From IMG/VR virus record IMGVR_UViG_3300033402_000312: a DNA stretch of 64,000 nucleotides; one strand, 5' to 3'. The DNA is from a virus. The notes under the pieces were generated by a model. The model searched no databases, was not told the DNA's origin, and saw only the letters and a program-made list of their open reading frames with translations. Below, piece by piece: positions 8,124 to 44,384 of the stretch. The translations under genes and the position numbers were made by a program. Each line of letters starts with the position of its first letter. The stretch's first letter is position 1.

Positions 8124-8124
8124 A

Positions 8125-22060: not shown

Positions 22061-23278
22061 TTGAGGGAAGGACTTGTGGGTTTCGGTAACGACAGCAGCG
22101 CAGCGAAGCGAGCGCCCTCAAGGACAGGTGCCCCGGTGAAGAGCGCAGTAAAAACCGCCCAGCTTGACCCGCATCGACGCAGCGACCAAGTGAAGGAGTT
22201 TTTGAATGCCATGCGCCGCCGCGTCGTGGGCCAAGACCCCGCGATTGAAAAGGTCGCGGAAATCTACCAGATGTTCCTCGCCGGATTGAACCCGCCCGGC
22301 CGCCCCGTGGGCAACCTTCTTTTCCTCGGCCCAACCGGGTCGGGCAAGACACGCGTGGTTGAGGCCACGGCGGAGGCGCTATTCGGCGACGCACGCGCTT
22401 GCATCAAAGTGGACTGCACGGAGTTCCAGCACTCGCATGAAATCGCCAAGCTGATCGGCTCTCCTCCGGGCTACCTCGGCCACCGGGAGACACATCCCGT
22501 GCTCACGCAGGAAGAACTGGCGAAATGGCACAAGGAAGACCTCAAGCTGTCCCTCCTGCTGTTCGACGAGATCGAAAAGTCCTCCGATGCGCTCTGGCAA
22601 CTTCTCCTCGGCATACTCGATAAGGCTACGCTCACGCTGGGAGACAACCGGCGCGTAGACCTGTCGCAAACCATCATCTTCCTGACATCCAACCTTGGGG
22701 CCGGGGAGATGCAGACTTTCCAGGAAGGCGGAGGCATCGGCTTCGGCGGTCCGGTCGTTGTGGTGGACGAAATGCTCGACCAGAAGATTCAGCGTACGGC
22801 AGCCGAGGCGGCAAAACGAAAGTTCACACCGGAATTCCTCAACCGCATAGACAAGACGGTGGTCTTCAGGACGCTGCGCGACGAACACCTCAGGAAAATC
22901 CTTGAGATCGAGCTTGGTCTTGTCCAAGGGCGCGTCCTGTACGCCGGGGGGACAACCAAAGGGTTCCTGATCAGCGTGGATCAGCAAGCAAAGGAAGCTT
23001 TGCTGCTGGAGGGCACCGATGCGAAGTACGGCGCTCGCCATCTAAAGCGTGCCATCGAAAGGAACATCGTGCACCCGCTGGCGAATCTCGTTGCCACAAA
23101 CCAAGTGACGCTGGGCGACGTCGTCCAGATCGGCTACGAGGGCGATCTTCCGGCTCACGGCGAAGCCCCAGTCACGGGGCAGTACACTTTCACAAAGAGG
23201 CAGGAAGGCGTTATACTTCCTACTGTGCTCCTTGAAGCCGAGGGGATCGTCGCACCTGGCAAAGCCGCAAAATTGTAA
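22061..23278 (+). CDS. Clp/Hsp100-family AAA+ ATPase (ClpB D2-like single module)
   Basis: RRVVGQDPAIEKV...LLFLGPTGSGKT (Walker A). LLLFDEIEK (Walker B and sensor). C-terminal small domain. Start may be TTG 22061 or GTG 22076. Confidence 0.8.
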   Translation: MREGLVGFGNDSSAAKRAPSRTGAPVKSAVKTAQLDPHRRSDQVKEFLNAMRRRVVGQDPAIEKVAEIYQMFLAGLNPPGRPVGNLLFLGPTGSGKTRVVEATAEALFGDARACIKVDCTEFQHSHEIAKLIGSPPGYLGHRETHPVLTQEELAKWHKEDLKLSLLLFDEIEKSSDALWQLLLGILDKATLTLGDNRRVDLSQTIIFLTSNLGAGEMQTFQEGGGIGFGGPVVVVDEMLDQKIQRTAAEAAKRKFTPEFLNRIDKTVVFRTLRDEHLRKILEIELGLVQGRVLYAGGTTKGFLISVDQQAKEALLLEGTDAKYGARHLKRAIERNIVHPLANLVATNQVTLGDVVQIGYEGDLPAHGEAPVTGQYTFTKRQEGVILPTVLLEAEGIVAPGKAAKL

Positions 23279-24043: not shown

Positions 24044-25225
24044 ATGAACAACGCCCACAACCGCGCCATGGCGCTGGCCAAGCTGCCCGGCGACGGAGCC
24101 TGCATCCTCATCAACGCCGTGTTCGGCGTCAACCCGAGGGCGTACCGCTGGTACGACGCCGTAAAGCAGCGCGACATCGCGCAGGTTCTCTACCAAGAAC
24201 TGGGCGAGAAGCGCGGCTGGTCGTTCCCCGACACCAAGAAGATCGCCGCCGCGACGCGCTGGCTCAACCTCTATTGGAGCGGCATCCCCTTGGACAGCCG
24301 CATCGGCATTACCCGCGAGGAGCGCCTTGACAAGTGGGGCTACGACATCCCCGACGACTTCGACGAGTTCTCGGAAAAGGAACTGAACAAGTTCGCCGAG
24401 GAAGCATATCGCCAAGGGATCGGCGGCGAAGCCGACCAGATTTACACCTTCCTTACCGAGCTTAAGCGCATCGTCAAAAAAGCTCCATGCAACCCCAAAG
24501 GCAAGGCAATCCTTCCAATGCGCGAGACGCTGCTGCTCTCCGCGTACACGCTGGGCTGCCGCATCTCCGACATGAAAGGCAAAACCGAGGATTTCTTCGA
24601 ATCCATCATCACGAAAAGCGCCTACGCCTTGAAGACGACCGATCCGCGCCGCGTTTGCATGGAGTACCTGATCAAGAACCAGACCGAGAACGGCAAGGTC
24701 GAGTGGCGCGTCTCCGGCAGCGAGCAGCTTACCGTGACGCTCATTTGCATGCGCGAATACTTCGACGGTCACGAGATTCGCGACGGCGAAATCAAGTGGG
24801 TCGATTGGGAGTCGCAGAATTACCACGGCTGGATGGTGGGCGGCTACCGCTGGAACGACAGGCTGGTCGCTGGCGCTCCGCGTCTGTCCGACGAGGAAGA
24901 CAAGCTCTTCAAGGCGAACGAGGAGTTCGAGAAAGTCCTGCGTGCCCAGCGACGCGCGGCTTTGGCACTGAAGGCTGAGGAAGCCGAGGAAGCCAAGCCT
25001 GAGAAGCCGGAAGAGAAGGTTACCGACAGCACCTCATTGGCTCGCTTGGACATGTCCAAGAAGACCTACAAGATCATCACCGAGAACGGCGGCGTCAAGA
25101 CGGTCGGCGAACTCCGCTCGCTGACGCAGGCGAAGCTGTTCAACATCAAAGGCGTCACCTCGAAGGTCTTCAACGAACTGAAAGATGTTCTTGGCGGCTA
25201 CGGGCTGACGTTCAGGAAATGGTAA
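24044..25225 (+). CDS. hypothetical protein with C-terminal RNA polymerase alpha-CTD-like HhH domain
   Basis: LDMSKKTYKIITENGGVKTVGELRSLTQAKLFNIKGVTSKVFNELKDVL resembles the alpha-CTD HhH. Confidence 0.55.
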   Translation: MNNAHNRAMALAKLPGDGACILINAVFGVNPRAYRWYDAVKQRDIAQVLYQELGEKRGWSFPDTKKIAAATRWLNLYWSGIPLDSRIGITREERLDKWGYDIPDDFDEFSEKELNKFAEEAYRQGIGGEADQIYTFLTELKRIVKKAPCNPKGKAILPMRETLLLSAYTLGCRISDMKGKTEDFFESIITKSAYALKTTDPRRVCMEYLIKNQTENGKVEWRVSGSEQLTVTLICMREYFDGHEIRDGEIKWVDWESQNYHGWMVGGYRWNDRLVAGAPRLSDEEDKLFKANEEFEKVLRAQRRAALALKAEEAEEAKPEKPEEKVTDSTSLARLDMSKKTYKIITENGGVKTVGELRSLTQAKLFNIKGVTSKVFNELKDVLGGYGLTFRKW

Positions 25226-25664
25226 CCGTCAATTTGTAAACAAGACCGGGGAGGGTTCCGCCCGACCAAGCGATCTTCCCCGCAACCTTCATGCCGTGGC
25301 GCTCGTAGAAGGCGCATGCCACGGCATTCGCTTCCCTGACCGAAAGGTAGAGGTCGCCCCCGGACGGCAGCACAACCTGGGCGACAAAGTCTTCAAACAC
25401 GACCGAGCCTTTGCCGTTGCCTTGGCTGCCGTTCACGATCTGGTGGAGCATGACGGCACCGGCAGGAATGTCAACCTCGCCCACGCGGGTGCGCTTCTTG
25501 TATTTCTGGAATGTGATCGCGACGCCGTCCTCATAGATGCACTGCCCCTCCTCGATGCGCTTCTTCAGCTTGTCTTGGCGGACGTGCCTGAGTTCCTCGT
25601 GCGCCTGCATGAGCCTGTGGATTTCCTTCAGGTCGGCCAGAGTCGCGTACCTCATTGTGCCCAT
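25212..25664 (-). CDS. GNAT acetyltransferase
   Basis: VREANAVACAFYERHGMK and a GNGKG motif. Confidence 0.6.
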   Translation of the reverse strand: MGTMRYATLADLKEIHRLMQAHEELRHVRQDKLKKRIEEGQCIYEDGVAITFQKYKKRTRVGEVDIPAGAVMLHQIVNGSQGNGKGSVVFEDFVAQVVLPSGGDLYLSVREANAVACAFYERHGMKVAGKIAWSGGTLPGLVYKLTVTIS

Positions 25665-26779
25665 TATTTCCTTTTGAACACGTAGATCGGCTCGTACTTG
25701 TGGGTGTCTGTTTGCTTCTTGCGGGTGCCCATCATGCGGCTGAGCGCGAGCTTGAGGGTCTCAACGTATTTCCAATCCTTCCGGTTGGCAAAGCGCAAGA
25801 ATTGGTCTTCCATCCCGCTGTAGGTGCCGACGTCCGCGATGTTGACCGCGAGGAAACCGTCCGGCTTAAGACAGTATTCGCAGTTGTCCAGCGTCGCGCC
25901 CATAAAACCTTCCAGCCAGGCTAAGCTGCTTGGAAATTTCTTGTAGCTTTGGGTCTCCTCGTCGGCATATTTCTCGCAGTCAAAATACGGCGGGCTGGTA
26001 AAGCACAAGTCCACGGTGTTCGGCGCAAGCTTGACATGCATCATCTCGCTTCCTAGCATGTGCAGGTCGGTTTCCAGACCGCGCTCCGGTACGATGCGCC
26101 TGATGTCGGCTTCCATCTGCCTCAGGCCAGCGAATGTCTTGGAGGCAGGGTCGCAGCCGATGTATTTGCGGACTTTCTTGGAGGCGACAGCACCGAGCAA
26201 GCGACCGCCCCAGCCCATGCTCATATCCCATGTGGTGCCGCCCTCCGGCAGCAGATGGTCATAGATCGCCGCCGCCGCTGTGGGGCGAAAATTGCTCACA
26301 GCCTGCGTCCCGGTGAATGAGCGGACGGATTTGCGGATGCCGCTGTTGGACATGTAAGCGCCGTACTTGAGGCGCTTCTCGATGACAGCCTTGAGCAGGG
26401 CGTCATCGTTCCATGTCTTCTCTACGGTGCGCATGCTGCCGCACTCGACGCTGATGTGGTGGGGATGATAAGACCAAGCGAGACCGAGGGCATACATGTT
26501 TTGCCCTATGATGCCGTCCTTGAGCAGACCTGAATAGTCGCGCTTGACAAGCATACGGAGCGTGCGCTCCTTTTGCGCCTCGGTCAGCACGTACTGCGGG
26601 TAGCCGGTGGCGCGGTAATGGTCGAACGCAGCCTGCTTGAATGCAGCCATGGCAGGCTCGTCGTAGGTGTCCCATACTTTCTTGTTGACGAAAATTTCGG
26701 GATGCGACAATCCACAGATTTCGCAAGGCTTGAGCGTGGGTGCCACAGCGATTTCACTCATCAAGAGTAATACTCCCAT
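25664..26779 (-). CDS. DNA methyltransferase (amino-MTase, SPPY motif)
   Basis: Motif I-like DMSMGWGGRLLGA comes before motif IV TSPPYFD. N-terminal Cys cluster. Confidence 0.65.
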   Translation of the reverse strand: MGVLLLMSEIAVAPTLKPCEICGLSHPEIFVNKKVWDTYDEPAMAAFKQAAFDHYRATGYPQYVLTEAQKERTLRMLVKRDYSGLLKDGIIGQNMYALGLAWSYHPHHISVECGSMRTVEKTWNDDALLKAVIEKRLKYGAYMSNSGIRKSVRSFTGTQAVSNFRPTAAAAIYDHLLPEGGTTWDMSMGWGGRLLGAVASKKVRKYIGCDPASKTFAGLRQMEADIRRIVPERGLETDLHMLGSEMMHVKLAPNTVDLCFTSPPYFDCEKYADEETQSYKKFPSSLAWLEGFMGATLDNCEYCLKPDGFLAVNIADVGTYSGMEDQFLRFANRKDWKYVETLKLALSRMMGTRKKQTDTHKYEPIYVFKRK

Positions 26780-26816
26780 CTGGACGATTTCAGTGTCCCG
26801 GCTGTATATTTAAGGT

Positions 26817-27083
26817 ATGGAAGCCCACAAGGAGGCCACGGCGTACCGCGTGGATTTGGTCATTTCCACCGGGGGCTATGCCCCATACACCAGCCGCGAA
26901 GGAACCGACCTCGGCATGGCTCAATCGCTTGCTGCCGGGCTGAAAAGGCAATCGACGGCGGGCCGCATCGTTGAGCTTCCATCCGGCGCTGTGGTGGAGG
27001 AGTGGGGTTCCGATCTCCTGCCCAAATCCCCGAATGCCGTGCGTGACGCAGTCCAAGCCCTCCGCGACAAACGCCCTTTATAG
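26817..27083 (+). CDS. hypothetical protein (plus-strand island in a minus-strand block)
   Basis: 88-aa ORF. Weak support. Confidence 0.3.
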   Translation: MEAHKEATAYRVDLVISTGGYAPYTSREGTDLGMAQSLAAGLKRQSTAGRIVELPSGAVVEEWGSDLLPKSPNAVRDAVQALRDKRPL

Positions 27084-27545
27084 CCTTTTCGCCATGCTGA
27101 TGGCGTGTTTCCCCAAGCCGTAGTAATTTTTTACGAATCCGCACACCCGATAGCCAAGCTGAAAGTAGAGAATTTGCGCCGGGTTCTCGGTGTAGACCTC
27201 CAGCCTCATGTCCTCGTACCCGCGCTGCTTCACAGCTTTCTCGCAGGCAGCGATGAGCTTTGTGGCTGCCCCCTTGCGGCGGTGCGCACGGCTGACGTTG
27301 CACGTCTCGATGTTGATCTTGCGGCCCTTGACAGCGGCGACCAGGAATCCGGCAATGCGGCTGCCGATATAGGCGACCCACGCGAGATTCAGCTTCCGGG
27401 CGAATGTCATCTCGCGGCTAAACTCCGGCTCGTGCCAGCGCAACTCCGGCTCAAAGCACTCGCATTCAATCGCAAACAGTCTTGGCAATTCCTCGTCTTT
27501 GAAGGCGTTGCGGATTGCGACGGGCATCTTACTCGGCATGCCCAA
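27078..27545 (-). CDS. GNAT acetyltransferase
   Basis: CNVSRAHRRKGAATKLIAACEKAVKQRGYEDMRLEV...YFQLGY. Confidence 0.75.
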   Translation of the reverse strand: MGMPSKMPVAIRNAFKDEELPRLFAIECECFEPELRWHEPEFSREMTFARKLNLAWVAYIGSRIAGFLVAAVKGRKINIETCNVSRAHRRKGAATKLIAACEKAVKQRGYEDMRLEVYTENPAQILYFQLGYRVCGFVKNYYGLGKHAISMAKRL

Positions 27546-27975
27546 CTAAATATGCTATTGCTGTTTGCAAAACAGCGATATTTTCCTCCGCGAATCCGAG
27601 AAGACTATTGCACTTTTGGCAGAGCAATCCTCGAAAAGTTTTGTTCCTATCATGGGTATGATCAATATAGGGTTTGCGATCTTCTCCAAACTCCTTTTGG
27701 CAAATAGCGCAACGATTGTTTTGGGTCTGTTTTTGGGTTTCTACCTGTTCAGGCGTTACGTCATACAAACACTTGATGCGCGACGCATATTTACGATCTG
27801 GATAGCGACTTGCCCAAGCACGCGTGGCTTTATGATGGTACTCTGGGTCATTCAAATAGCGTGTTCGACCGCGTTGTCTTCGACACTCTGAACAGTGTGC
27901 TTTACGCCCAGACCCTTGACGAGTAATCGACATATCATGCCCCGCTCGACAAAAAGCTTGTCTGGGTGCTGCCAT
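27529..27975 (-). CDS. recombination endonuclease VII family protein
   Basis: CAICQKEF...YIDHTHDRNKTFRGLLCQKCNSLLG. Confidence 0.8.
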   Translation of the reverse strand: MAAPRQAFCRAGHDMSITRQGSGRKAHCSECRRQRGRTRYLNDPEYHHKATRAWASRYPDRKYASRIKCLYDVTPEQVETQKQTQNNRCAICQKEFGEDRKPYIDHTHDRNKTFRGLLCQKCNSLLGFAEENIAVLQTAIAYLVGHAE

Positions 27976-27978
27976 TTT

Positions 27979-29262
27979 TTATTCCTCTTCGACGAAAATC
28001 GGGGTCACCATTGCTTTACATCGGTGCCGTCGATTTATCAAAAAAAACGCCTGTTTCGGCGGCTCGTACGGCGCTTTGATGTGGATGGCGAACGAATTGT
28101 AGCCGATCAGGGACCCGTTGCAGATGAAGTCCTGGCCGTCGATGAACTGGTGGTGGTGGCCGAACACGTCGAGGTTGACGTCGCGCACCGACTTGTTCCA
28201 GCCAGCAATCGCCTTGTTGACCGTGGGGTAGATGCCGCCCACGCCGCCTGTGCTCTTGATGGCGTGCCCATGGTGGAAGCGGATCACGTAGGGCTTGTCC
28301 TTGTCGAACAGGCGGACGATGGTGTGGTAGCCCGAAGCGATCTGGAAAACTATGCGAGGCTCGTCCTTGAATTGGTCGCGGATGTTGAAGTACATGAAGC
28401 GCTCGATGGAAGTGCCTGCTTCAGTCTTTATGCGCTGCTCGGATGTCATCCTGCCGTGGTTGCCGCTGTGGCATACGATGGTGAGCTTCACGTCCTTGGG
28501 CAAGTGCTCCAGCAGGAACAGCAAGCCGCTGATGATGAAGCTTTGCGCCTTGTACATGGCGTCGGTCGGCTGGAGCAGGTTGCTTTCGGCTAGGTCCTCA
28601 TGGATGCGGTTGGTGATAAAATCCCCAAGCAGGGCGATGATGACTTCCTTGATTTCGGTCTCCTTCGACTCTTTCTCGTACAAGCGAAGGGCGCTCTGCC
28701 AAGCCTTGATCACGCGCTTCTCGGCGATCTCAAGGTTGAACTCGTTCACGCCGCTGACGTCGTTCGGATCAACAGGCTCCTCGATGTGCCAGTCCGAAAA
28801 GACGACCACAGCGACGGAATAGCTGCTGCCGCTGCTCCTCCTCGGGAGGATGTCGATGATCTGGGGGGTGTGCTGGTCGAGGCCGATCAGGAGCGAAACC
28901 TGCTCCTCAAGTTCTTTGATGCGGTTGAGGGACTCGTTGTATTTCTGCTGCGTGCCCTCTTTCTTGACGGCAACCTTTTCAAGGTCAACCTTCAGCCTAT
29001 CTTCCGGGGTCAATTCGACCGGCGCTGCCTTGGGCGACGCCAAAGCCTCGGGCTGCCCCCCTCCGGCCTCGATGAATGCCTTGAAGGTTGGAAAATACTC
29101 CGCCCATGCGATGTCCGCATATTCGCCATGTTTGCGGTAAAAATCTCTTGTGATCGTGGCGTCTGGGAAATTCCTGCGGATTTTCTTGATGTCCGCGACC
29201 AGTTTCTTGCGCGTGCCGTGAGTCGGCTTCTGTCCCGGCTCTGTCCTTGAGGGCTTGTTCAT
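27979..29262 (-). CDS. calcineurin-like metallophosphoesterase with N-terminal coiled coil
   Basis: VVVFSDWH, LLGDFITNR, CHSGNHG and VFGHHHQ phosphoesterase motifs. ATG at 29262 is preferred over the listed TTG at 29283. Confidence 0.75.
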   Translation of the reverse strand: MNKPSRTEPGQKPTHGTRKKLVADIKKIRRNFPDATITRDFYRKHGEYADIAWAEYFPTFKAFIEAGGGQPEALASPKAAPVELTPEDRLKVDLEKVAVKKEGTQQKYNESLNRIKELEEQVSLLIGLDQHTPQIIDILPRRSSGSSYSVAVVVFSDWHIEEPVDPNDVSGVNEFNLEIAEKRVIKAWQSALRLYEKESKETEIKEVIIALLGDFITNRIHEDLAESNLLQPTDAMYKAQSFIISGLLFLLEHLPKDVKLTIVCHSGNHGRMTSEQRIKTEAGTSIERFMYFNIRDQFKDEPRIVFQIASGYHTIVRLFDKDKPYVIRFHHGHAIKSTGGVGGIYPTVNKAIAGWNKSVRDVNLDVFGHHHQFIDGQDFICNGSLIGYNSFAIHIKAPYEPPKQAFFLINRRHRCKAMVTPIFVEEE

Positions 29263-29442
29263 TGACAAGGGGTGTGCCTCCAAAAATGTTCTGCCTTACT
29301 AATGAGGCAGGAAGCGGCTGCATCCGATAGATACTGCGCATTCTGGGACTTGCAGAATTGCCAGTGCTCGACTCTTGACCAAACTATCCGTTTCAAGGTA
29401 GAGGAGGGCTGTCTTGGCACGCGCCGGAATTCCAACAAAACC

Positions 29443-31002
29443 ATGAAATCCGTAACCGCAGACAAGCTGCCCAACATGCACTCCACGGAATTCAAGGGAA
29501 TCCCGCTCGTCGTCCAATGGCCTAAGGGGAGCACACGCGTCGGCGAGCGCGGCGACGGCACCCCGTTCAAGATCGAGATGAAGGCAGACTACGGCTACAT
29601 CCCCGCCACAGTTGACATCGATGCGGACGACCACCTTGACGTCTACATCGGCCCGCACAGGGATTCCGAGTACGCATACGTGCTGGAGCAGTTGCGGAGC
29701 GGGGCGTTCGACGAGTACAAGATCATGCTCGGCTACGAATCGCTGGAGGAGGCGGAACGCTCCTACCTCGACCACCTGCCCGAGGACATGCTTGGGGAAA
29801 TCTACGAGGTGCCGTTCGACGACCTTTTCGACGCGTACAAAAAGGAAGAGGTAAAGGGCAAAACGGACGAAGCGGAAATCCACGAGGAGCGTGCCGAAAA
29901 GCACAAGCAGGGCGACGAGAAGCTCTCTTTGATCGACGCTTTCGTCAAGCTGTACAAGCACGAGTTCGAGTACTTCGACAAGGTCGCCGACGAGGTGCAC
30001 GACCAGCTTTCCGAGGTGCTCCAGGAAGCGGGCATCCGCGCCATCGTGACCTACCGCGCCAAGAAGCCCCGCAAGCTCAAGGGAAAGCTCCTTGAGCGCA
30101 GCAAGGCAAAGAACTACCAGTCCTTCCAGGACATCTACGACGACATCGTAGACCTCGCCGGAGTCCGCGTGGCGCTGTACCTGCCCAACGACCGCGCCGC
30201 CGTGGGGCAACTCATCGAGCAGCGGTTCACCCTGATGCGGAAGCCCAAGAATTTCCCCGAAGACAAGGGACCGAAAGACAGCATAGGCTACGTCGCCACG
30301 CACTACCTCGTCAGGCTCAAGCCGGAAACCCTCCACAAGGACGAATACCAGTATGCAGACACAAACGTCGAGATTCAGATCGCGTCCGTGCTCATGCACG
30401 CGTGGGCCGAAGTCACCCACGACCTCCTCTACAAGCCCCAAAACGGCACCACCCTCACCCCCGAAGAAGTAGCGATGATCGACGACCTGAACCGGGTCGT
30501 GCAGGAAGGCGAGGCCGTCCTTGAGAGGCTTCAGCAGTCCGTCGAAAGCCGCAGCCATGAAGACCTGCGCTTCGAGCTTGCCGCTGCCCTGACCAGGCTG
30601 GCGAAAAGGCTGGAAACCCAGTCCAAGGGGCGGGCAATCCGCAGGATCACCGCCAGCGACGTCAGGGCTGTCGCCAAGCAAGCGGCGGGAGACCTTTACG
30701 CCTCGCTGATGCAGTGCATGAAAGACCTCGGCTGGAACTACGCGGAGAACGACAACTGGTCGGACCCCATCAAGCCGCAAGAGCAAATCCAAGTGTTCCG
30801 CGACGGCTGGCTGCACCGCGCATGGGACAAGATCAAGGGGAGCGGCAGCACGGCGCAGGAGCTTCAGGAATACCTTGGGAGGCACGGTTTGGGCGACGCC
30901 AAGCACCCGCACAGGCTGCCGAACCAGCCCCCGCTGCCGCCGCACGTGAGCTACCTGAGAGCCAAGCTCGCGCTGTGGAAGGCGTACAGCAAGTCGCTTT
31001 GA
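29443..31002 (+). CDS. RelA/SpoT-like nucleotidyltransferase (small alarmone synthetase-like) with large extensions
   Basis: DLAGVRVALYLPND...GYVATHYLVRL...TNVEIQIASVLMHAWAEVTHDLLYK matches the RelA_SpoT synthetase core. Internal ATG 29443 is used because the upstream part overlaps the divergent gene. Confidence 0.75.
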   Translation: MKSVTADKLPNMHSTEFKGIPLVVQWPKGSTRVGERGDGTPFKIEMKADYGYIPATVDIDADDHLDVYIGPHRDSEYAYVLEQLRSGAFDEYKIMLGYESLEEAERSYLDHLPEDMLGEIYEVPFDDLFDAYKKEEVKGKTDEAEIHEERAEKHKQGDEKLSLIDAFVKLYKHEFEYFDKVADEVHDQLSEVLQEAGIRAIVTYRAKKPRKLKGKLLERSKAKNYQSFQDIYDDIVDLAGVRVALYLPNDRAAVGQLIEQRFTLMRKPKNFPEDKGPKDSIGYVATHYLVRLKPETLHKDEYQYADTNVEIQIASVLMHAWAEVTHDLLYKPQNGTTLTPEEVAMIDDLNRVVQEGEAVLERLQQSVESRSHEDLRFELAAALTRLAKRLETQSKGRAIRRITASDVRAVAKQAAGDLYASLMQCMKDLGWNYAENDNWSDPIKPQEQIQVFRDGWLHRAWDKIKGSGSTAQELQEYLGRHGLGDAKHPHRLPNQPPLPPHVSYLRAKLALWKAYSKSL

Positions 31003-31080
31003 CCGATTTTTCCGAAAAAACGTTTACAAAATCCCTAAGCAGCGGGGAAGATAAAATCCCCTAAGCAAAATAAGGGATTG

Positions 31081-34000
31081 ATGAGCTTGCTGGACAAAAA
31101 GACGGCCAAGCAGTACGAAAACGCCAGTACGCAGATCAACGTGCCCCCGGAGGTCGCCGCCGAGATCGCCCGCATAGGGAAGAAACTGATCCCGGACGGG
31201 CACCTTGCAGGCGACGGCAGAGTTGAAGTTCTGCATGTCACAATAAAGTACGGCGTGCAGCCGAACGAACACGTCCTCCAGCAAGCCTTGGCTGGGCACA
31301 AATCCTTCGAGGTTGTGCTCGGAAAGACCACGATATTCCCCGAGGCGAGCACCGAAGCCACCCCGGTGGTGATCGAAGTCCACGGTCATGAGTTCGAGGC
31401 GCTCCACGAGACAGTCGCTGCTGTCATGGGCATCCTGCCCGACGACTTCCCTTACACCCCGCACATCACCATCGCCTACGTCAAGCAAAAAGAAGCGCAG
31501 CACTACGCCGGGAAGGACGACTTTGTCGGCATCGAGTTTGTCGCCGACGCCGTAACCCTGTCCATATTCGACGACGACAACCAGGTTGACGTCCCGCTGG
31601 CGAAAGCCGCCGCAGAGGCTATCTTAGGAGGGAGAAACACAAAAGCGTGGCTTCTTCCCAACGGTAGATTCCAGACATGGGAGTTTATCGAGCATCCTTT
31701 GGTAGAACCTGAGATGTCACCCGCCATCCGTGTTGGGCGAGGTCCCTCGGGGCATGCTTACGCCCAGATAACAGAACCGCCGACTAACGCCCAGATGAGC
31801 GCCCTCGCAGACTTGGACAAGTTCGAAAAAGGATTATTCGTTGAGATCAAAGATAAAAACTCAGATACCGTGTATGAGGGCGTCCCCGTAAGGTTTTCTG
31901 AAATTCGTCATGCGGTGAACTCTGCTTTTCCCAAAACTGCCGCGTCCCCGGCTGTAATGCCCGAAATTCCCGAGGTTGTGCCGCAGGTTCCGCAGGAACA
32001 GCCTGAAGACGAGGAAGAGGTGCAGCGCGACGAGCCTGCCACGGGAGAGAAGCGGGAGGAACCGAAGCGCCAAAGGCAGCCGAAGAACAGGCTCCTCCGG
32101 CCGAAGCAGCCCAAGCAGAGGGCACCGAAACCCCCCGTCCAAACCACGAACTTCAAGAGGTGGTTCGGCAAATCCAAGGTGCGCGACGACAGCGGCAAGC
32201 CGCTGGTGGTCTACCATGGCACGACGCATGATTTCGAGGCGTTCGACCCGAGCCAGGGCAACGTGGAGAACCACTACGGCAGGGCACTGTACTTCACGTC
32301 CTCCAAGACCGACTTGGCGGAAAACTACGCGACAGAGGCGGGGCCGGACATCACCCAACGCATCGAACTGACCGCCGAGCGCATCTTCAACGACTTGCAG
32401 GAGGAGTGGGACGAGGAGCACCCCGGCGAGGAGTTCCCGCCATACAGTTCGGACGAATACCAAAAGTTAATGGAAGAAGCGAGGCAGCAGGCGAAAAAGC
32501 AAATCGCTGGGCAGAGCCAAGGCGTGAGCATGCCCGTCTACCTCAGCCTCCAGAACCCGGTCGTCGTGCAGAAGAACGGCGGCACCGGGTTCGAACTCAA
32601 CATCGACGAGGACGGCAACGAGTCCGGCAGCGCATTAACCCTGTACCACGCGATGTTGCGCGTGGCAGGAAACTATCACCATACTGATGCGCAAGAAATA
32701 TGGGTCGATCTCATCGAACATAACGGCGAGTCGTTCAATGCCTGGGATTTCGAGCGGCAAGTTCGCAACGCGGGACATTACGTTGAGGACGACGAAGGGA
32801 ACCTGGCAAGCGGCAGCTTCATCGCAGATGTTTACCGAGAGATGGGCTTCGACGGCATCATCCAAGACGCCTACGCCGAGTTTGGGGTCGGTCAATACGG
32901 CAGAATGAAGATGGAGCCGGGCACGAAGCACTACATCGTCTGGGACCCACGCAAGGTCAAGAGCGCCATCGGCAACGTGGGCAAGTTCGACCCGGCGAAC
33001 CCCAGCATCACGGCCGCGAGCAGGCAGTACCCCGCCACGGAAGAGTGGATCGGCAGGGCGAAGAAGTTCCTGAGGGAAAAGTGGGCGCAGCGCAACGACG
33101 AAATGGGGCGCGGAGAAATTCCAAGCAACCTTGAAGGCGCGTGCAAGTTCGCGTCGCTGTTCGCCAAGGAGCTTTTCGGCGGCAGGATCGTCGGCAACCC
33201 CGAACACCAAGTTGTCCAGCACGTGTACCAGATCATCGACTTGACCGACCGATACGACCCGAATACGTTCCGCCACGACAAGGAATGGTTCGGGAACCCC
33301 GAGCATCAGGAATCCATGCAGTCTTGCATGCCCCGCGTGAAACAGTGGGCAGAGGAGTTCAGGCAAAAGCACCCGCTTGAGTCCGAGACCGATGCTAAAC
33401 TCGCAAGCGACTACCACCGAAATGTCGGCTGGCTCCTGCATGACGGCAGCTTCAAGCCCCTAATCAAAGGCGAGAGCCACCGCGAGGGGGCTGTGCGCCT
33501 CGGGCTTTCAACCGACCCGCAGGACATGACCGAGGCTTTCGACAAGGGGGCCGTGCGGGTCAGCGGGAACCAGTATACGAGCCTTGAGTTCAAGATGCTG
33601 TCGCCGAACATCGCTTCCCTGCTCCTGGACTTCATCCTACAAAAACGCAGCGACGCAAAGACAATCACCTTCGACTGGTTCAGGCCGCGACGGGCAGAGC
33701 AGGAATTCAACAGCGTGGACGACGCCGTCGAGTGGCTGGACAACCCGTTCGCCGTGATGGCTTCCGCCAAATCCGCCGCTGGCTTTAACAAGCGCGTTAT
33801 CAGCATCGACGACCTTCCGGGGGAGGCGAAAGCCGACTTGGCGGCGGAGATCGCCGAGCATCTGACCGCCATCGGATTCCAGCCCCCGTGGCAGGAGAGC
33901 GGGGCGGTGGAGGCCAACGACCTGCGCCCGGAACTGTTCGACCTCGCCGACCCGCCGCTGGTCACGGTGTACGACGCCCCGGTCGAAAGCCTGCACAAGA

Positions 34001-37000
34001 CGCTAGACCGCAAGTACGACCCCGGCGACGGCGTCGTCAGGAAATACGTGGAAATGCTGAAATCCGGCGTGGAGTTCGACCCGATCTTCGTGAACAACGG
34101 CGAATTCTCGGACGGCGGGCACCGCCTCGAAGCCTACTATCGCGCCGGGCGCAAGACCATCCCGGTCGCCGAAATCGGCCCGTTCCTGAACGCCCCTGCC
34201 GAGTTCTGGCAGCGCTGGCTCTCGGGCGACGAGAATGCAAAGTTCGCAGCGTTTCCGAAGACGGCCTTGAACGTGCCCCGCCTCGTGAAGGACTTTGGGC
34301 AGAAGCTTGTTGCCCGCGCAGAGCGGGACCACTCCGCGCCTACGGTGCCCCCGCCGCGGCCGGGAGCGGAACCCGCGACGAGGGAACAGCAGGTGGAGCA
34401 GCGGGCGACGACGCTCGTCAACTCCATCGCGCAGTCCGACCCGTCCCCCAACAAGGAATACACGGCGTGGATCGTGGGCAACTACGCCAGGGGCGGCATC
34501 AACCGCTGGGAGGACATCAAGTCCCGCGCCATTCCGGCGCTCAAGCGCTTCAATACCCTGAAAATCACCAGGAAGCTGCCCCTCGAAGAGCGCGACATCA
34601 TGAAGGTCAAGGGCATGAAGGGGCTTGAAGACCTCATGGAGAAGTACAAGGAGGTCGAGGCAATCTCTGAGACCCAAAAGGAAAAGGAGGTGGAGGCGGC
34701 TTTCTTCCAGAACGGCGGCGCGGCGATGGTGCATGACGACCCCCAGATCAAAGTCGTCACCCCCAAGACCAAGGAAGCAGCTTGCTTCTTCGGCATCAAC
34801 ACGCGCTGGTGTACATCGGCGCAGAACAGCTACAACTATTTCGAGAGCTACAACAAGAAGGGTCCGCTGTACATCGTGCTCATCAAGGCGAACAACCAGC
34901 GCTTCCAATTCCATTTTGAGACCGAGTCGTACATGGACGAGCGCGACAACGCGGTCGATCCGTGGGACTTGACCTCCCAGTACCCGGTGCTCAAGAAAAT
35001 CTTCCAGCCCGTCGTTCTCGGATTCATGCGGAACAACGCGAACATCAGGGCCAGCTTCGTGGCTTTCGTTGAGAAGCCCACCACGGAGATGATGCTGGCT
35101 GCCGTGGACGAAGACCCGTCCGCCATCGACCATTTCCCGAACGCCCCGCAGGAGGTCAAGTGGAGGGCATTTTGCCGCCGAATGGGGTTCTCGGAAGAGA
35201 ATTACGACAAGAAGCTGAAGGGCTTCGTTGTCGCGGAATACGAGAACGTGGAGGAGTTCGCCGAGGAGCGGGGAAACGACACCGCGAAGTGGGCTGCCGG
35301 GATTTCGAGCGGCAAGGAAGACTGGGACTCCGATGGCTCCGGGTTCGAGGCAAGCACTGTGCTGGACGCGTGCAAGCCGACCACCATAGCCGAGATCAAC
35401 GAGTACATCAAGTTCCACCACGACGCCTCGCTCCAGCCTTGGCTCAAAGCCAACGAGGAAACATTCCCCCTCGATGCCAGCAAGATCGAGCAGTTCATGA
35501 CCGACGAAGGGCTGGACGATGTCGAGGACAAGCTCCGGTCCGGCTGGTACAGCGGCGAGGAATCGGGGGCGCAGGACGAGGTTATCGGCGCGTTCAAGAG
35601 CGCCTTGACGGACATTAACCGCAGCACCACGGAAAACGGCACGGTAATCGTCTTCGACCAGGCAAATATGTGGGACAGCAAGGTCTTGGAAATCCTGCCG
35701 CTTGCCGAAGCCGAGAACATGGTCAAGGAGAACCCCGGCGACACGGACCTATGGGACAGTTCCGACAGGTACCACGAGAACGAAATCCTCAAGGTCGAGC
35801 AGCCGTACTACGGCTTTTCCGGCTTCAGCGAGGAGGCGTGCAACGAGCGCATCTCCGAGGAGTTCTACATCTCCGACAAGGAGCGCAAGGAAAGAGCGGG
35901 GCAGCAACCGGAACTTCCCCTAGCCGCACCGGCAAAGAAAAAGCGCAGGAAAACCAAGGCGTCGCTGCTGGAAAAGCGGGGCGTGCGCGAGAAGAGCGTG
36001 GACGACCTCGGGCTGGCGAAAAAGGTCATGCGCGAGCTTATCCCCGTCCTCGGCGAGCAATTGCCGGAGCCGGAACTGAAGGTCGTGAACCAGCCGAGGG
36101 CGGGGTGGCTCGGGCGGGACACGTGGCGCGTCGGCATCCAGAATGGCAAGCCGACTTGGGGTGACAACACGACCATCGAGCTTCAGGCGTACATCCTGAA
36201 TGATGAAAACACTCTGCGCCGGATCATTGCGCACGAGCTTGCGCACCATGCCGACGCGCTGGTCAACGGCGTCGAGGAAATGAAGAAGGTCAACGACAAG
36301 TGGACGTACAAGTGGTTCTTGCGCGAGAACAGAGGCAGGGGCCACGGCATGACGTGGAAGCAGTATGCGCAGAAGTTCAACGCCAAGTACGGTGCGGACT
36401 TCGTCACTGAGAAGTCCGACGAGTCGTACGTGACGGAAGAGCAGGAATTAAGACCGTACCACATCCTGCTCAAGCGGGACTATGACGGGAAGCTCGCCTA
36501 CGAGGTTTCGTCCCGCATTTCGCCGAAGATGAAGAGAATCCTCGATAGGATGGCGAGCAACAAGGACGGCACGGAATACCGCCTCACGCAGACTAACGAC
36601 CGTGACTTCTACGAGGGGCAACTCATCAGTTCATACTACTGGAACCACCCGAAGGAGCCGGAGAAGCAGGCGAAGCTGGAAGCGCTCTGGGAGAAAGGGC
36701 AGAGGGTTCTGCCGACCGGAACGGCGAAGGAGCAAGATGAACTGGTGAGACTGTGGAACGAAGCCAAGGAGCGCAGCAAGGCGAGGGGCAAGGCGAAGGT
36801 CTCCGACGCCCACAGCGACAGAGCCAAGACCTTCCCTGACGCCGATGCTTTCTTGAAGGAGCACTACACGGGGTTTATCCCCAGCAACGCTTACGACAGC
36901 AAAGACTGGTCTATGTGGAAAAGGGAGGATTTCCCGGTCCTCCTCAAGACCTTCACTCTCAAGGACGGCACGGAAGTCGAACTCCGCAAGACAGGAGAAC

Positions 37001-40000
37001 CCAACAAGTACACGAAGGTGGACGAGAGCGGCGAAATTGTCCGCGACACAGGAGGTCTCGCAACCTACCTCTCCCCGGAGGAGGTGAAGGCGAAGGGTCT
37101 TCCCGAAACGGACACCGCGATTTTCGCCTTCATCATGGACGGGGATTGCGTAGGCCAAGCGTCTGATGAATGGGGCGCGGACGGTGTCTGGGTCGCCCCG
37201 CAAATTCAGCGTCAGGGCCTAGGCACCGAACTCCTAACCGAGCTAAGAAAGCAATTCAAACCGACCCGCCAAATGGGGCAAATGACCCCGGCTGGCAGGG
37301 AGATGGCCAAGAAGTACTACAACAATTTGTTGTTGAAAGAAGCCGCCGTGCCCCAGCTTCAGGAATTGCAGCACGGCGTGTCCAAGGACTACGACCGCGT
37401 GCGCTGGGTCTATCAGCAGTTCCTCGACAGCCGCGTCCGGTCCATGCCGTGGCAGGACTTCCAGAAGAGGTTCCCGTGGGCGCAGAACTCCCCGCTGTTC
37501 ACCGAGGTGCGCCAGAACCGCCCGAGGATCACGACCGAGGACATGGAACGCTGGATGGACGAGTACGACGCCAAAGCCAAGGAGTACCAGAACTACGAAA
37601 TCGAGCACGGCACGTACCGGGACAAGGAGACATCCTTCCGCGACGTGGAGCAGCTTGTTCTGAAAGTCAACCAGTCCGCCAGCGCGAGGGAGATCGTCGG
37701 CGAAGACCCGATGATGAAGGAGTTCCTGGGGCAGGTCGCGCAGGGCAGCGCCCAGTCCGGGCACCCTGCGGGCGAGAGCACCGTGGGCTGGCTCCGCGTG
37801 GACTTCATCGACGACGACTGGCTGCTTGTCGATGAAGTCCAATCGGACTTGATCAACGCGATGGAGCTAGGCAAGCGCTTCCTCGCCGAGCCGACGCTCG
37901 AATCGCTGATGTCCAAGTACAAGAGCGAGACCGTGAAGCAGAAAATCCGCGACATGGGGGCGACGGAGCAGACGTTCCAGATGTCCAAGCGGGAGATGGT
38001 GCGCCGGGGCTACACGGTCGAGAAGCTGGAGGAGATGAAGCGGCAGCTTGTCAACCTGTTCAAGGACTGGGCAGAGTACGGCATCGCCAGCCTGATCGAG
38101 ATCGCCCGTCGCCACGGCATCAGGAACGTGGCGATCCACACGGGCGAGACCGTCGCAAGGCGGGACCCCGACCTCGAAGCAGACAAGGCGGGCATGTACT
38201 ACGACCGGCTTGCGAAGTCCTTTGGTTTTAGGAAGCAACCGTTGGACGTTGGCGACCTCAAGGGCACCTTCTGGGTGCGCACCGCAAGCGCCAAGATGCC
38301 CAAACACCTGTACCACGGCACATCAGAATCTAACATAGCAAAAATCCTGAAAGAAGGAATAAAGATAAAGCACGTCCGGCAGGCTTCTGACGGAATCTAT
38401 CTCACAGATAATCCATCGAAAGCCGCAGAGTACAGTGATTCTTCCGAGGTTCTGAGGATTGACACAAAAGCCCTAGATTCGAACAAATTGCGGCCTGATT
38501 CCGACGACCTACAAGCCTTTTGGGAGGAGCATCTATCTGAGGCGGAGAAGGAACAATACGGGAATAGTGCCAACGTCCCGTGGCAAGCTGTAGTTCACGA
38601 TTTGACCCAGATTACCTACGTTGGGGATATTCCGCCCGAGGCTATTCAAGTCATTCGAGTAAAGACCGCAGGCAAGCGCGACGAGGACGTGGGCGACCTC
38701 AAGGGGAATTTCTGGGTGCGCACCGCGAGTAAAACCAGCCCGGTGACGTGGGAAGAAGTTAAAAAGCATATCACTAAGACTAATCCCCATGAAGGTGCCC
38801 GAGACGCTTGGGGTGGTATGAGTGTGGAACTTCCAAATCTGGCGTGGGCAAAAGAACTAATCCAACCGAACGACCCCCGTCTTGATTGGAGTAATCTACA
38901 TCCAGCGTCAAAGCGGGATATAAGGCGCTATATCAAATTCCATGAAAAGAGCGAAAACCAAGATTGGTACAGAGGTTTTCCCGCAGTCATATTGACACTG
39001 GAGAACGGTAGGCTTTTTGTGCAAGATGGGGCGCATCGCCTTGCAGCTATTCATGAATTGGGCATTCCGGTTGAGGCTTATGTGGGGAGACAACAGGAAT
39101 CAAAGCAGGCAGGCAAGCGCGACGAGGCGACGACCAGCATGACGGTCGGGACGACCGACCCGAGCTTCCCCATGCCGGTGCTGATCCGCTGGGAGCAGGG
39201 CATGCGCTGGCGTCAGGTGCTCAAGGCGGTCAAAGCGATAGTGGGCGAGATCGCCGGGCGCAGGGTGCCGTGGCGCGAAATCCACATCTGGGCCTCGCTC
39301 TGGGAGAACCAGCAGGTGCAGCAGGAGGGCTGGGCGACGGAGAGGGCGATTGGCAACCGCGTCATGTACGACATCCTGCACAACGGCAGCTTCGTGAGCG
39401 TGGGGAAGCAGGTTGCCACGGCGACGGGGGCGGAACCAGAGCCGGAGTATGTCGGAAACTGCACCGAGGACGAGGTCGTGGCGCAGTATTTCGGCGACGC
39501 CACAAGGCTCGCCCAAGCCATAGAAAACGGCGAGAAAAGGTCGGAAACCGAAGTCTTTGATCCGACCTCGAACTTGCTGATCAAGTACGACCCGGCGACG
39601 GACGTCCACTCCTTCTACAAGACTGCCGACTCGCACAAGGTCACGCCGCTCGACGAGACGTACTACAACTCGCCGGAGAGCGGCGAGGAGACCAACGCCT
39701 ACGCCGACGTACCGGAGCGCGTGCGCGGCATCTACGACGTGCCGCCTTTGAAGGAGCTTGCCCCGCAGCTTTTCGAGAAGGACGCGGCGGGCAAAAAATA
39801 TCCTTTCGCCGCAGTGAAGCGCGTCGCCGACCGATGGTTCAGGAAGAATTGGCGCACGGTGCAAAGCGGGTGGGGAGACCAAGTAAGCTACGAAGTGGGG
39901 TTCACGATCTACCTCGACCAGAACGGCAAAGTGCAGATGACGAAGCTCGCGCAGGGTGACACCGCCGAGGTGGAAATCCCCGCCCCGCCCGAGGGGTGCA

Positions 40001-42906: not shown

Positions 42907-44383
42907 TTGCTATCTTCTTCACTTTGATCGAGGCCTTCCCCATGGTGCTCAAGCCGAGACAAGGCACTATCTCGGGTTCAGCACTGCTCCCGAGGAACGC
43001 ATCGCGCAGCATTTCAGCGGCGAGGGCGCACGTTTAATGCAAGTACTTTACGAACGCGGAATCACTTTCACTGTCGCCCGCATCTGGAACAACTGTGAAC
43101 GAAAGTTTGAGCGGCGCTTGAAGAGCCAAGGCGGACTCTCTCGTCATTGTCCAATTTGCCTGAATCTGGGATTGATTCCCACTTCACGGGCACGAAGCAA
43201 GGCTTTAAGTGACGTGCAACCTGTCCCCAAGACCATGCAGCCCAAGACGGCCGCTGGCGCTGTGGACATCGACTGGGAGACCGGCATGTTCGAGAACTAC
43301 AAGCTCGTCCCAAAGTACTCGTACCACGAGTACGGCGACCCAATCGACGAGGACGAGGCGATTGGCGAATTGAACTGGAACATGCTGGTCGTGAGCGTGT
43401 TCGACACCGCCAAGGAGCAAAGGGGAAAGCCGGGCAAGCAGGTCGGCGAAGCCGACTTCGTGCTGCGCGGCGGGCGGCTTGAGTCCGCGAACACCGAAGT
43501 GGACAAGAGCTACTGGAGGCGGGGCATAGCCACGGCATTGTACCAGTACGCCGAGAGCTTGACCGGATTCAAGACGAAGCCACACTCGACGCAGTCCCCG
43601 GAAGGACGCGCCCTGTGGCAGCAGGGGAGCAGGCCGTTCGGCAAGTCCGGCTCGGACAAGCCCATGATGGAAATGCACCGCAAGGGCGCTGTTGTCTGGA
43701 TCGACTGGTTCGAGGTTCCGGCGAGCCAGCAGGGCAAGGGCTTAGGCAGGAAGTACTACGAGGCGTGGGAACAAAAGCTGCCCAAAAACGTGAAGCTTGT
43801 TCGGCTGTTCGCAGGTAATACGGACACCGGAGAAGCGTCGGGCTTCTGGGCAAAGATGGGCTTCGAGAATGTATTCTACGACGAAGAAAGTCAGTACAGC
43901 TTCTACATGTGGAAAGGCGTGAACGGCAACCCGACGCCGCCGCCGATGGATTCCCCCGACGAAGACCCCGGCTACGACGTCGAGGACGAACCGGAGAAGA
44001 CGGCGTCCAAGACGGCTGCAAACCGTGTGAGCGGCGAGGACGTGGTCGCTTACGTCATGAAGCTCAACGAGTGGGACAGGGACACGGCTTATCAGGTCGT
44101 GGGGCCGGACGCCGGGGGCGACTACGTGCTGCGCGACTTCCCGCTCAGCAAGCTGAGCGCAGGGGACGATTACGACCCGGAGCAAGCGGAGCAGTACTCA
44201 AGAATGGAGGGCCCGCTCCCGCCCATCGTGCTGGGGCTGGAGTCTAGGGCGCACCGCGACAAGCCGGAAATGGTGACGTACTATGTCATCCGCGACGGGA
44301 ACCATCGCGTGGCGGCGGCAAAGCTGCGCGGGGATAGCAAGATCAAGGCGTACGTCCCAGCGGACGCTACGAAGGTTAAGTAA
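42899..44383 (+). CDS. GIY-YIG-like / GNAT / ParB-like multidomain protein (494 aa)
   Basis: N-terminus YLLHF...HYLGFS...RIAQH (GIY-YIG-like). GNAT-like SYWRRGIATALY and QQGKGLGRKYY. C-terminal YYVIRDGNHRVAAAKLRG (ParB-like). Confidence 0.7.
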   Translation: MSSCYLLHFDRGLPHGAQAETRHYLGFSTAPEERIAQHFSGEGARLMQVLYERGITFTVARIWNNCERKFERRLKSQGGLSRHCPICLNLGLIPTSRARSKALSDVQPVPKTMQPKTAAGAVDIDWETGMFENYKLVPKYSYHEYGDPIDEDEAIGELNWNMLVVSVFDTAKEQRGKPGKQVGEADFVLRGGRLESANTEVDKSYWRRGIATALYQYAESLTGFKTKPHSTQSPEGRALWQQGSRPFGKSGSDKPMMEMHRKGAVVWIDWFEVPASQQGKGLGRKYYEAWEQKLPKNVKLVRLFAGNTDTGEASGFWAKMGFENVFYDEESQYSFYMWKGVNGNPTPPPMDSPDEDPGYDVEDEPEKTASKTAANRVSGEDVVAYVMKLNEWDRDTAYQVVGPDAGGDYVLRDFPLSKLSAGDDYDPEQAEQYSRMEGPLPPIVLGLESRAHRDKPEMVTYYVIRDGNHRVAAAKLRGDSKIKAYVPADATKVK

Positions 44384-44384
44384 A

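Follow-up and report, generated by a model that had tools for sequence, protein, structure and literature searches.

A stretch of 64,000 nucleotides from IMG/VR virus record IMGVR_UViG_3300033402_000312 (hereafter the window) carries on its plus strand a gene whose 519-residue product joins a phage-type inorganic pyrophosphatase domain (InPase) to a RelA/SpoT-type synthetase domain, and beside it, on the minus strand, a divergent gene for a metallophosphoesterase. Our preferred explanation, to which we give a probability of roughly 60%, is that the fusion protein is an effector of a huge soil phage, injected or made early for host takeover, and that the phosphoesterase serves a separate, nuclease-type function. 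An earlier note on this DNA had proposed a toxic-nucleotide synthetase with its cognate hydrolase, acting in host takeover in the manner of the toxic small alarmone synthetases (toxSAS). A role in takeover or conflict survives as the most reasonable one for an intact synthetase heading an effector cluster, whereas the toxSAS-like pair does not.

The plus-strand product consists of three parts: the InPase domain, a small alarmone synthetase domain resembling RelQ and RelP, and a variable C-terminal region. The RelA/SpoT core that had been noticed in this gene is recovered by Pfam RelA_SpoT (PF04607) on residues 205-333 (E 3.6e-13; 50.2 bits vs a cutoff of 27), and both segments quoted for it, DLAGVRVALY and VEIQIASVLMHAWAEVTHDLLYK, lie within the open reading frame (ORF). 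The extra sequence reported on either side is there too: some 130 N-terminal residues correspond to InPase, and the C-terminal part, put at about 200 residues, comes to ~150-185 residues for which we found no match in Pfam, in the PDB or in the window. Within the family this C-terminal region varies through indels and alternative tails; compared with the polyvalent proteins, the tail and the insert found in longer homologues gave marginal matches only (E 0.01-0.05).

The InPase domain scores 95.4 bits against PF18823, for a cutoff of 26.8. Positions D49, D66, E82, D90, E91, K93, R32 and K43 are invariant or nearly so in the family alignment, the cluster preceding D66 is acidic in every homologue aligned, and the acidic loop has a one-residue insertion relative to the DGDEVD of the portal type. 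Judged by sequence, the domain has the features of a putative family I inorganic pyrophosphatase of the phage InPase subgroup.

In the synthetase domain, the residues of the active site are invariant across 45 homologues spanning 47-79% identity: R205, K207, K215, R219, D237, G240 and R242 (the Arg/Lys cluster and DxxGxR), G282, Y283 and H287 (GYxxxH), E310 and Q312 (EIQ), and H326, Y330 and K331 (HxxxYK). All five synthetase motifs are thus present and the window residues align to those of RelP and RelQ, among which we take, from work on RelSeq and RelQ, the Asp to bind Mg, the Glu to be catalytic and the Arg/Lys residues to form the ATP site. Loss of catalytic residues, the sign that the earlier note had named as speaking against its idea, was not seen at any of these positions, and the domain is predicted to be catalytically competent. 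The family does have motif variants of its own, GY[VI]A[TD]H for GYxSxH and E[IV]Q[IV]AS for EIQIRT, the latter without the usual Arg-Thr. The change to EIQIAS in the window protein could speak for a domain that is catalytically dead or structural, such as a virion scaffold or a decoy; with the metal-, ATP- and acceptor-site residues invariant down to 47% identity and the small alarmone synthetase fold complete, we hold this to be extremely improbable. Of the signatures collected in PMC12226406, the motifs match neither that of the guanosine type nor the adenosine-type one of Apk2. Assignment of the acceptor nucleotide from such signatures was considered and rejected as unreliable, motif swaps having failed to convert specificity in Apk2 (PMC12226406).

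The AlphaFold model of the protein, built on a 45-sequence alignment, has a mean predicted local distance difference test score (pLDDT) of 80, rising to ~85-93 over residues 163-370. For this part Foldseek ranked RelQ/RelP structures best (2be3, 6fgk, 5dec and 6ewz), with target TM-scores of 0.76-0.79 for the best chains and 0.57-0.79 over all RelQ/RelP chains, and E values down to 1.3e-7; CapRel, the long Rel enzymes and an exported Streptomyces synthetase came behind them. A search of PDB sequences with the plus-strand protein detected only RelP/RelQ-type synthetases. Pfam, the five motifs and the fold all place the domain among the synthetases of the RelA/SpoT homologue (RSH) superfamily. 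A fold search in BFVD found InPase and RelA/SpoT domains in viral proteins, many of them InPase-containing polyvalent ones, and no convincing full-length match to the plus-strand protein.

The fusion was found in ~95 protein clusters, all metagenomic; out of 185,579 bacterial species genomes 80 loci were retained, and all of these lack the fusion, matching the synthetase part only. The closest of these bacterial loci belong to metagenome-assembled genomes (MAGs) of Acidobacteriaceae, at 47-54% identity. Synthetase-only relatives in general measure ~420-470 aa and share 41-54% identity with the synthetase domain of the window protein (L015-L028 and L040-L119 in our numbering of related loci; e.g. 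L017 9965-11284 and L016 9872-11293), and occur in many bacteria, among them Pseudomonas, Burkholderia, Streptomyces, Nocardia and the Acidobacteriaceae MAGs. A number of them occupy P2-like prophages, with tail genes on one side and GmrSD/HEPN genes on the other, and the PADLOC defence candidate PDC-S33 matches both these relatives and the window protein (E 4.5e-9). The synthetase-only proteins may form an uncharacterised single-gene RelA/SpoT defence family.

These relatives bear on a different reading of the synthetase, as a pyrophosphokinase of the tRNA 3'-CCA end (the CapRel, FaRel2 and PhRel2 type) that would block host translation or exclude competing phages. That the closest non-fused relatives are single-gene, some of them in prophage hotspots and matching PDC-S33, is in its favour, as are the presence of CapRel among the structural matches and a long C-terminal extension like that of fused toxSAS. 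Yet both sequence and fold are nearer to RelQ/RelP, CapRel superposing with a root-mean-square deviation of ~19 Å and not being found by sequence. Moreover, tRNA-targeting toxSAS are strongly basic, whereas this domain is not (isoelectric point ~5.7 in the window, family median 6.1), which weakly disfavours a tRNA acceptor. On balance a tRNA target seems unlikely to us.

With two disparate domains, InPase and RelA_SpoT, and encoded by a phage beside giant polyvalent genes, the plus-strand product has the make-up of a polyvalent protein. The 3652-aa protein that follows it combines 2H (2_5_RNA_ligase2, with a weak Acb1 match), ART-PolyVal, SprT-like, GNAT and PARP domains, and a second giant of 3232 aa holds PARP/Tpt1-like, NUDIX, YunG-like, ART-PolyVal and GNAT domains. 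In 15 of the 15 related loci with downstream sequence, homologues of these giants come after the synthetase gene and share its strand; co-oriented and syntenic with them, the gene is probably co-transcribed with the giant effector genes. In relatives such as L001, the domains of both giant ORFs are split over several smaller genes.

The window belongs to a huge phage genome of the ~300-460 kb class: relatives of the synthetase gene sit on IMG/VR viral contigs of 332, 455 and 463 kb, and others on contigs of 438-463 kb. Identical proteins are also recorded on a contig of 894,233 bp, about twice the 438-463 kb of six relatives, and this contig could represent a concatemer or an element of much greater size. 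The host is probably an acidobacterium (Acidobacteriota). A cultured relative in terms of layout, Tunturi_5 (PP885688.1), is a 309-kb jumbo myovirus of Tunturiibacter, an acidobacterial host, and has 58.4% GC (PMC11924767); the GC content of the window is 53-61%.

How the protein would reach its target is suggested by the company that InPase keeps. The domain matches the C-terminus of the solved phage portal 9b41 gp19 (E 2e-13 / 3e-21), its PHROG matches comprise minor head, virion structural, DarB-like antirestriction and polyvalent families together with several giant proteins, and tblastn retrieved 455 cultured-phage records, mostly portal or minor-head genes. The accessible part of Iyer et al. 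2017 (PMC5512222) lists InPase and RelA/SpoT as phage-type polyvalent domains, predicts that such proteins are packaged and injected, proposes that InPase clears pyrophosphate (PPi) or processes a nucleotide-like substrate, and places RelA/SpoT among the domains of polyvalent proteins from Spirochaete and epsilonproteobacterial (pro)phages. Because the InPase module recurs in portal, MuF and giant injected proteins, we infer delivery with the virion as one route, and the protein would act at or just after genome entry, either virion-delivered or made early. Its synthetase would transfer the beta-gamma pyrophosphate of ATP to a purine nucleotide at the 3'-OH and thereby make a product of the (p)ppGpp or (p)ppApp type, which could shut down or reprogram host transcription, translation and nucleotide metabolism. 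InPase would supply an independent second activity, PPi clearance or nucleotide-phosphate trimming, as in polyvalent proteins, and regulation or targeting of the enzyme may fall to the variable C-terminal tail.

The minus-strand gene encodes 427 aa and its product matches phrog_284, annotated as exonuclease, with E 1.4e-36. In 37 homologues D157/H159, G213-D214, G267-N268-H269, H330/331/333 and G368-H369-x-H371 are invariant, so that the protein carries, on its sequence, the DxH, GD, GNH, H and GHxH motifs of calcineurin-like metallophosphoesterases. The earlier identification as a metallophosphoesterase is upheld by these motifs and by the Foldseek fold, though Pfam Metallophos does not match the window protein and does so weakly in only 2 of the 37 family members. 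In the model (pLDDT 80.5), a helical domain at the N-terminus is followed by a helix of 45 residues and then by an alpha/beta domain. The long helix, which gives weak coiled-coil-type matches to AAA_23 and ZapB, agrees with the coiled-coil N-terminus that had been described. Upstream of it, the N-terminal domain gives an HNH_repeat match in 10 of the 37 homologues (best E 7e-7) and scores below threshold in the window protein. The top Foldseek match of the model is the DP1 exonuclease subunit of archaeal PolD (9f29_A, E 5.8e-7), followed by 5'-nucleotidase, the Pol alpha B subunit and acid sphingomyelinase; a profile search of PDB sequences, run also with the type-B and type-C proteins described below, returned nothing useful. 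With a DNA-binding-type domain, a coiled coil and a metallophosphoesterase domain, the protein looks like a putative DNA nuclease, separate from the synthetase. It is the first gene of a leftward block for DNA metabolism and modification (Endonuclease VII, GNAT, DNA methylase): the Endonuclease VII gene and the block at 25212..27545 follow it on the same strand.

The position of this gene speaks for a toxSAS-like pair of toxin and antidote, controlled from the 180-bp region between the two genes. A phosphoesterase of the window's kind (type A) is divergently adjacent to the synthetase gene not only in the window but in L004-L006 and L008-L012, and in L001 (8517-9848) and L003 (8257-9849) the same place is taken by a phosphoesterase of another type (type B), which shares the N-terminal domain (E ~1e-13) and has a Pfam-recognisable Metallophos domain; a further type-B gene, in L007 (5611-7191), lies ~3 kb away. 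Calcineurin-like enzymes can hydrolyse nucleotide polyphosphates, as ApaH does with Ap4A.

Several observations oppose such pairing. In L013, L014 and L027 (~8100-9870) the divergent gene encodes instead a ~550-aa helix-turn-helix (HTH) protein (type C) without detectable similarity to the phosphoesterase; residues resembling DxH, HD, SNHD and GHTH could be picked out by eye in these HTH proteins, but Pfam, PDB and profile-profile comparisons do not confirm them as phosphoesterases and they were not counted. The phosphoesterase family is also far larger than that of its supposed partner, with more than 3155 detectable members as compared to a few hundred for the synthetase and ~95 InPase-RSH clusters, and is widespread without a RelA/SpoT gene nearby. 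By tblastn it was found in 62 cultured phages, including cyanophages S-CBS1 and KBS-S-2A and many phages of Bacteroides, Phocaeicola and Parabacteroides; judged by organism and not accession by accession, the phages that match both genes come down to one Tunturiibacter phage record and possibly some Bacteroides phages. Among small cultured phages it also occurs within modules for replication and recombination: in Bacteroides phage BU2-2 the gene order is methyltransferase, DUF2800 exonuclease, single-stranded DNA annealing protein, phosphoesterase, HNH endonuclease, DNA polymerase and helicase, and in S-CBS1 the phosphoesterase is near exonuclease VIII and RusA. For three full-length metagenomic homologues (47-51% identity) on contigs of 55-95 kb, the surrounding 6 kb contain neither a RelA_SpoT nor an InPase gene; Endonuclease VII is present in that range for two of them, adjacent in L037 and ~5.8 kb upstream in L035/L036, and none is called in L038. 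The recurrent partner of the phosphoesterase is EndoVII/HNH; its N-terminus is of a DNA-binding type, and its best fold match is a DNA exonuclease subunit.

Most of the complication posed by these changing neighbours is cleared up by Tunturi_5. At its locus 222130-230271 (L039), a divergent Metallophos_2 'DNA repair exonuclease' (gp270) and then a JAB protein accompany gp272, in which GP88 takes the place of the synthetase domain (InPase + GP88, no RelA/SpoT), followed by a NUDIX/ART-PolyVal/GNAT polyvalent protein. InPase is here the constant head of a swappable effector, and the phosphoesterase adjoins the InPase-X and polyvalent cluster whatever X is, which argues against a dedicated hydrolase of the synthetase product. 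The layout fits a conserved order of two operons, or an early nuclease linked to the whole effector cluster. In addition, the alarmone hydrolases known so far belong to the HD or Nudix classes, and the antitoxins of known toxSAS are encoded in the same direction as the toxin, within one operon. Beside the synthetase gene of the window there is no HD-type hydrolase, the only Nudix domain found being that within the second polyvalent protein, and no small co-directional antitoxin-like ORF: the 3652-aa gene lies downstream and the divergent phosphoesterase upstream. The phosphoesterase as cognate hydrolase is consequently not supported, tempting as the pairing is, and a toxin/antidote couple strikes us as very unlikely.

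Some points weigh against our explanation of an early-acting effector with an unrelated nuclease at its side. The acceptor substrate is not readable from sequence, in a family with its own motif variants. Packaging is deduced from the habits of InPase domains only, and no structural genes were found in the window; among ten other window ORFs scanned against PHROG none is a virion gene, most of the ORFs tested having no PHROG match. Of the 13 distinct loci for which upstream sequence exists, 10 have, as the window does, a phosphoesterase with a DNA-binding-type N-terminus near the synthetase gene (adjacent in nine of them and at a distance in L007), and its position outlasts replacement of the catalytic domain (types A and B); such constancy could point to a functional connection to the effector operon and not simply to gene order. 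Finally, RelA/SpoT synthetases release AMP, not PPi, so that fusion to a pyrophosphatase has no obvious chemical logic.

This last point keeps alive the idea that InPase and synthetase form a coupled two-step enzyme, comparable to the hydrolase-synthetase pair of long RelA/SpoT homologues. Such an enzyme could make a trimmed, 3'-phosphorylated nucleotide, or could serve in counter-defence, acting on 3'-pyrophosphorylated substrates or immune signalling nucleotides. The fusion is kept in ~95 clusters with the acidic and basic residues of InPase conserved, an Acb1-like 2H domain occurs in the next gene, and the processing of a nucleotide-like substrate by InPase has been suggested in the part of Iyer et al. 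cited above (PMC5512222). The pair also recurs in permuted form in a metagenomic protein of 471 aa, P0095, with the order RelA_SpoT, HAD (PNKP-type 3'-phosphatase) and partial InPase, a combination that hints at 3'-phosphate chemistry. Leptospira phage LE1 gp25 had been considered as another carrier of both domains; Pfam finds in it InPase and a weak, sub-threshold HAD, and no RelA_SpoT. In opposition to coupling, InPase is fused to many unrelated domains (portal, helicase/methylase, endolysin, GP88) and third domains can sit between it and the synthetase, many fusion-family members having an extra insert of ~165 aa there. These varied partners and inserts favour InPase as an independent module. 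We know of no biochemical precedent for a coupled InPase-synthetase enzyme, and consider one distinctly unlikely.

The same low standing applies to a broader form of the idea, in which InPase and RelA/SpoT, possibly with the DNA-binding phosphoesterase, would make up a coupled 3'-pyrophosphate system. In one version it would write and trim 3'-pyrophosphates, yielding a non-canonical pGp- or ppGp-like nucleotide; in the other it would erase, or compete with, tRNA 3'-pyrophosphorylation and the signals of host toxSAS-type immunity. Either version, if true, would be a new form of viral counter-defence, resting on a pyrophosphatase fold for which no action on nucleotides is known.

The start of the synthetase gene deserves attention, given that public callers differ: JGI gives 519 aa, ENA/Logan assemblies give 566 aa, and the candidates are 29272, 29302 and 29443. 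The ORF is readable from GTG 29272, and the 566-aa call begins at an ATG within the loop of the inverted repeat discussed below. We take ATG 29443 as the true start because of three observations: 44 homologues open with MK(S/T)VTADKLPNMHS in the alignment, as does the window protein itself with MKSVTADKLP; the JGI call agrees; and the 37 nt preceding this ATG are kept in L002, the closest distinct relative (80% protein identity), as GGGCTGTC..GGC.C.CG.CCGG..TTCCAACAAAACC, while the remaining spacer is not. In public data, protein P0001 is 100% identical to the plus-strand product; an exact-protein lookup of the 519-aa product returned no record, and other assemblies carry the 566-aa version. 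Several relatives have a CAAAACC-like word 0-25 nt upstream of the start of the synthetase gene. A Shine-Dalgarno sequence is absent before the synthetase ATG, and the next gene has AAGGGA. Comparing the DNA of 27000-32000 with 50,697 phage records gave no match. For the minus-strand gene, P0121 in public data is 100% identical over 427 aa from ATG 29262; with this start, given by public calls, the divergent pair with a 180-bp spacer described in the earlier note holds.

That spacer does contain the perfect inverted repeat CTGCCT-N8-AGGCAG that had been pointed out, but nothing marks it as an operator. Across the window, perfect inverted repeats of 6 bp whose loops measure 3-20 nt number 1.18 per 180 bp, at least one is present in 46% of Markov-simulated spacers, and the words of the repeat seen here are missing from 10 related loci, as they are from the closest relative L002. 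A repeat at chance level also lends nothing to a toxin/antidote pair under shared control. We found no sigma-70-like promoter in 29263-29442, and words common to this spacer and other spacers or the rest of the window, as well as CAAAACCATG, were at chance level.

Table 1. Coordinates in the window of the two divergent genes, their domains, the region between them and their neighbours.
Feature	Position	Strand	Basis and remarks
InPase-RelA/SpoT gene, 519 aa + stop	29443..31002	+	ORF list, Pfam, homologue alignment; first in rightward effector cluster
InPase domain, aa 13-128, minimal family-I pyrophosphatase fold	29479..29826	+	Pfam PF18823, E 3.3e-27
Small alarmone synthetase fold, aa 163-370 (flanking helices, RelA/SpoT core, C-terminal helix)	29929..30552	+	AlphaFold 2 (AF2), Foldseek
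C-terminal region, aa 371-519 (helices and a small beta unit)	30553..30999	+	Predicted secondary structure; no family match
Leader 5' of the synthetase ATG	29406..29442	+	Pairwise DNA alignment with L002
Spacer between divergent genes, 180 bp	29263..29442	.	Sequence
Inverted repeat CTGCCT-N8-AGGCAG, perfect	29291..29310	.	Present; chance level; not conserved
Metallophosphoesterase gene, 427 aa from ATG 29262 (upstream TTG 29283 possible)	27979..29262	-	ORF, phrog_284
N-terminal helical domain, ~aa 10-66, homing-endonuclease-associated-repeat homologue	29065..29235	-	Pfam HNH_repeat in family
Long coiled-coil-like helix, aa 86-130, 45 residues	28873..29007	-	AF2 secondary structure
Phosphoesterase catalytic domain, aa 148-423	27994..28821	-	Invariant motifs, Foldseek
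Endonuclease VII gene, directly downstream of phosphoesterase	27529..27975	-	Pfam Endonuclease_7, E 1.7e-17
GNAT	27078-27545	-	Pfam; syntenic in relatives
N6/N4 DNA methylase	25664-26779	-	Pfam
GNAT-like	25212-25664	-	Pfam
3652-aa polyvalent protein, starting 76 nt downstream of synthetase gene	31078..42036	+	Pfam
GIY-YIG protein	42037-42906	+	Pfam; syntenic in relatives, also in L013
494-aa GNAT protein	42899-44383	+	Pfam; syntenic in relatives
3232-aa second polyvalent protein	44283..53981	+	Pfam

Other genes of the window add to this picture of its surroundings. The GIY-YIG gene between the first giant ORF and the GNAT gene may be a homing endonuclease in the effector cluster. Further to the left, one ORF (14963-15973) combines HNH endonuclease and RNA ligase domains, a 393-aa protein (24044-25225) ends in a region like the C-terminal domain of the RNA polymerase alpha subunit and may mimic or recruit host RNA polymerase, and a ClpB/AAA_2-type ATPase (22061-23278) has conserved counterparts at a distance of a few kb from the locus in L001, L003, L006 and L007. 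No tRNA genes were found in the 64-kb window.

How do these proteins relate to known systems? As in the polyvalent proteins of PMC5512222, the window gene is part of a setting rich in such domains, directly preceding two giants with ART-PolyVal, 2H, SprT, GNAT and NUDIX; unlike those cases, it is a stand-alone 519-aa gene in a clade of 300-460 kb soil phages, and a two-domain InPase-RelA/SpoT protein is not described in the part of that text accessible to us. The closest precedent for phage-delivered RelA/SpoT toxins is MuF-Apk2, the (p)ppApp-synthetase polymorphic toxins of temperate phages (PMC12226406). Both join a head-associated N-terminal module to a RelA/SpoT-type pyrophosphokinase, and MuF-Apk2 is toxic to bacteria. 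The window protein differs in having InPase at its N-terminus, with no Phage_Mu_F match in Pfam; in its motifs, with GVR, AxH (A-T-H) and IA where Apk2 has RYT, GxN and YH (syn2/3/4); in having a polyvalent gene next to it and no IapK/Aph1 immunity genes downstream; and in its setting, a huge, probably lytic phage and not a small prophage.

The housekeeping small alarmone synthetases RelQ/RelP (5dec, 6ewz, 6fgk, 2be3) are the best matches of the synthetase domain in sequence and fold, and it has the flanking helices and the five motifs in common with them; it departs from them in sequence (~20% identity, EIQIAS, GYVATH), in its fusion to InPase and a 150-aa tail, and in being phage-encoded. 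A RelA/SpoT domain with a long C-terminal extension is common to toxSAS, fused CapRel and PDC-S33, yet the window has no antitoxin gene or CapRel sequence match, and its gene is carried by a phage beside offensive effectors and not in a host defence island. The minus-strand protein resembles phage phosphoesterase 'exonucleases' (phrog_284; Mre11/SbcD- and PolD DP1-like) in its motifs, its top fold match DP1 and its EndoVII/HNH and DNA-metabolism neighbours, but differs in its coiled coil and in an N-terminus that resembles HNH_repeat, and no Rad50/SbcC partner was seen.

Neither the two domains nor the polyvalent theme is new, phage-delivered RelA/SpoT toxins have been described before, and public pipelines label these proteins ppGpp synthetase. 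Those phage RelA/SpoT enzymes that have been characterised to date are mainly MuF-fused (p)ppApp toxins of small temperate phages and prophage defence toxins. If the enzyme described here were active, huge phages would use alarmone-type nucleotides offensively at the start of infection, and a single tractable gene would give entry to the function of a polyvalent effector operon, with Tunturi_5 on Tunturiibacter as a laboratory model having the same locus layout. What is new with respect to these systems is the InPase-RelA/SpoT architecture with its own motif variants, confined to one clade of huge phages from soil and fixed in position as the first gene of the polyvalent operon, together with the InPase-X swap in a cultivable relative.

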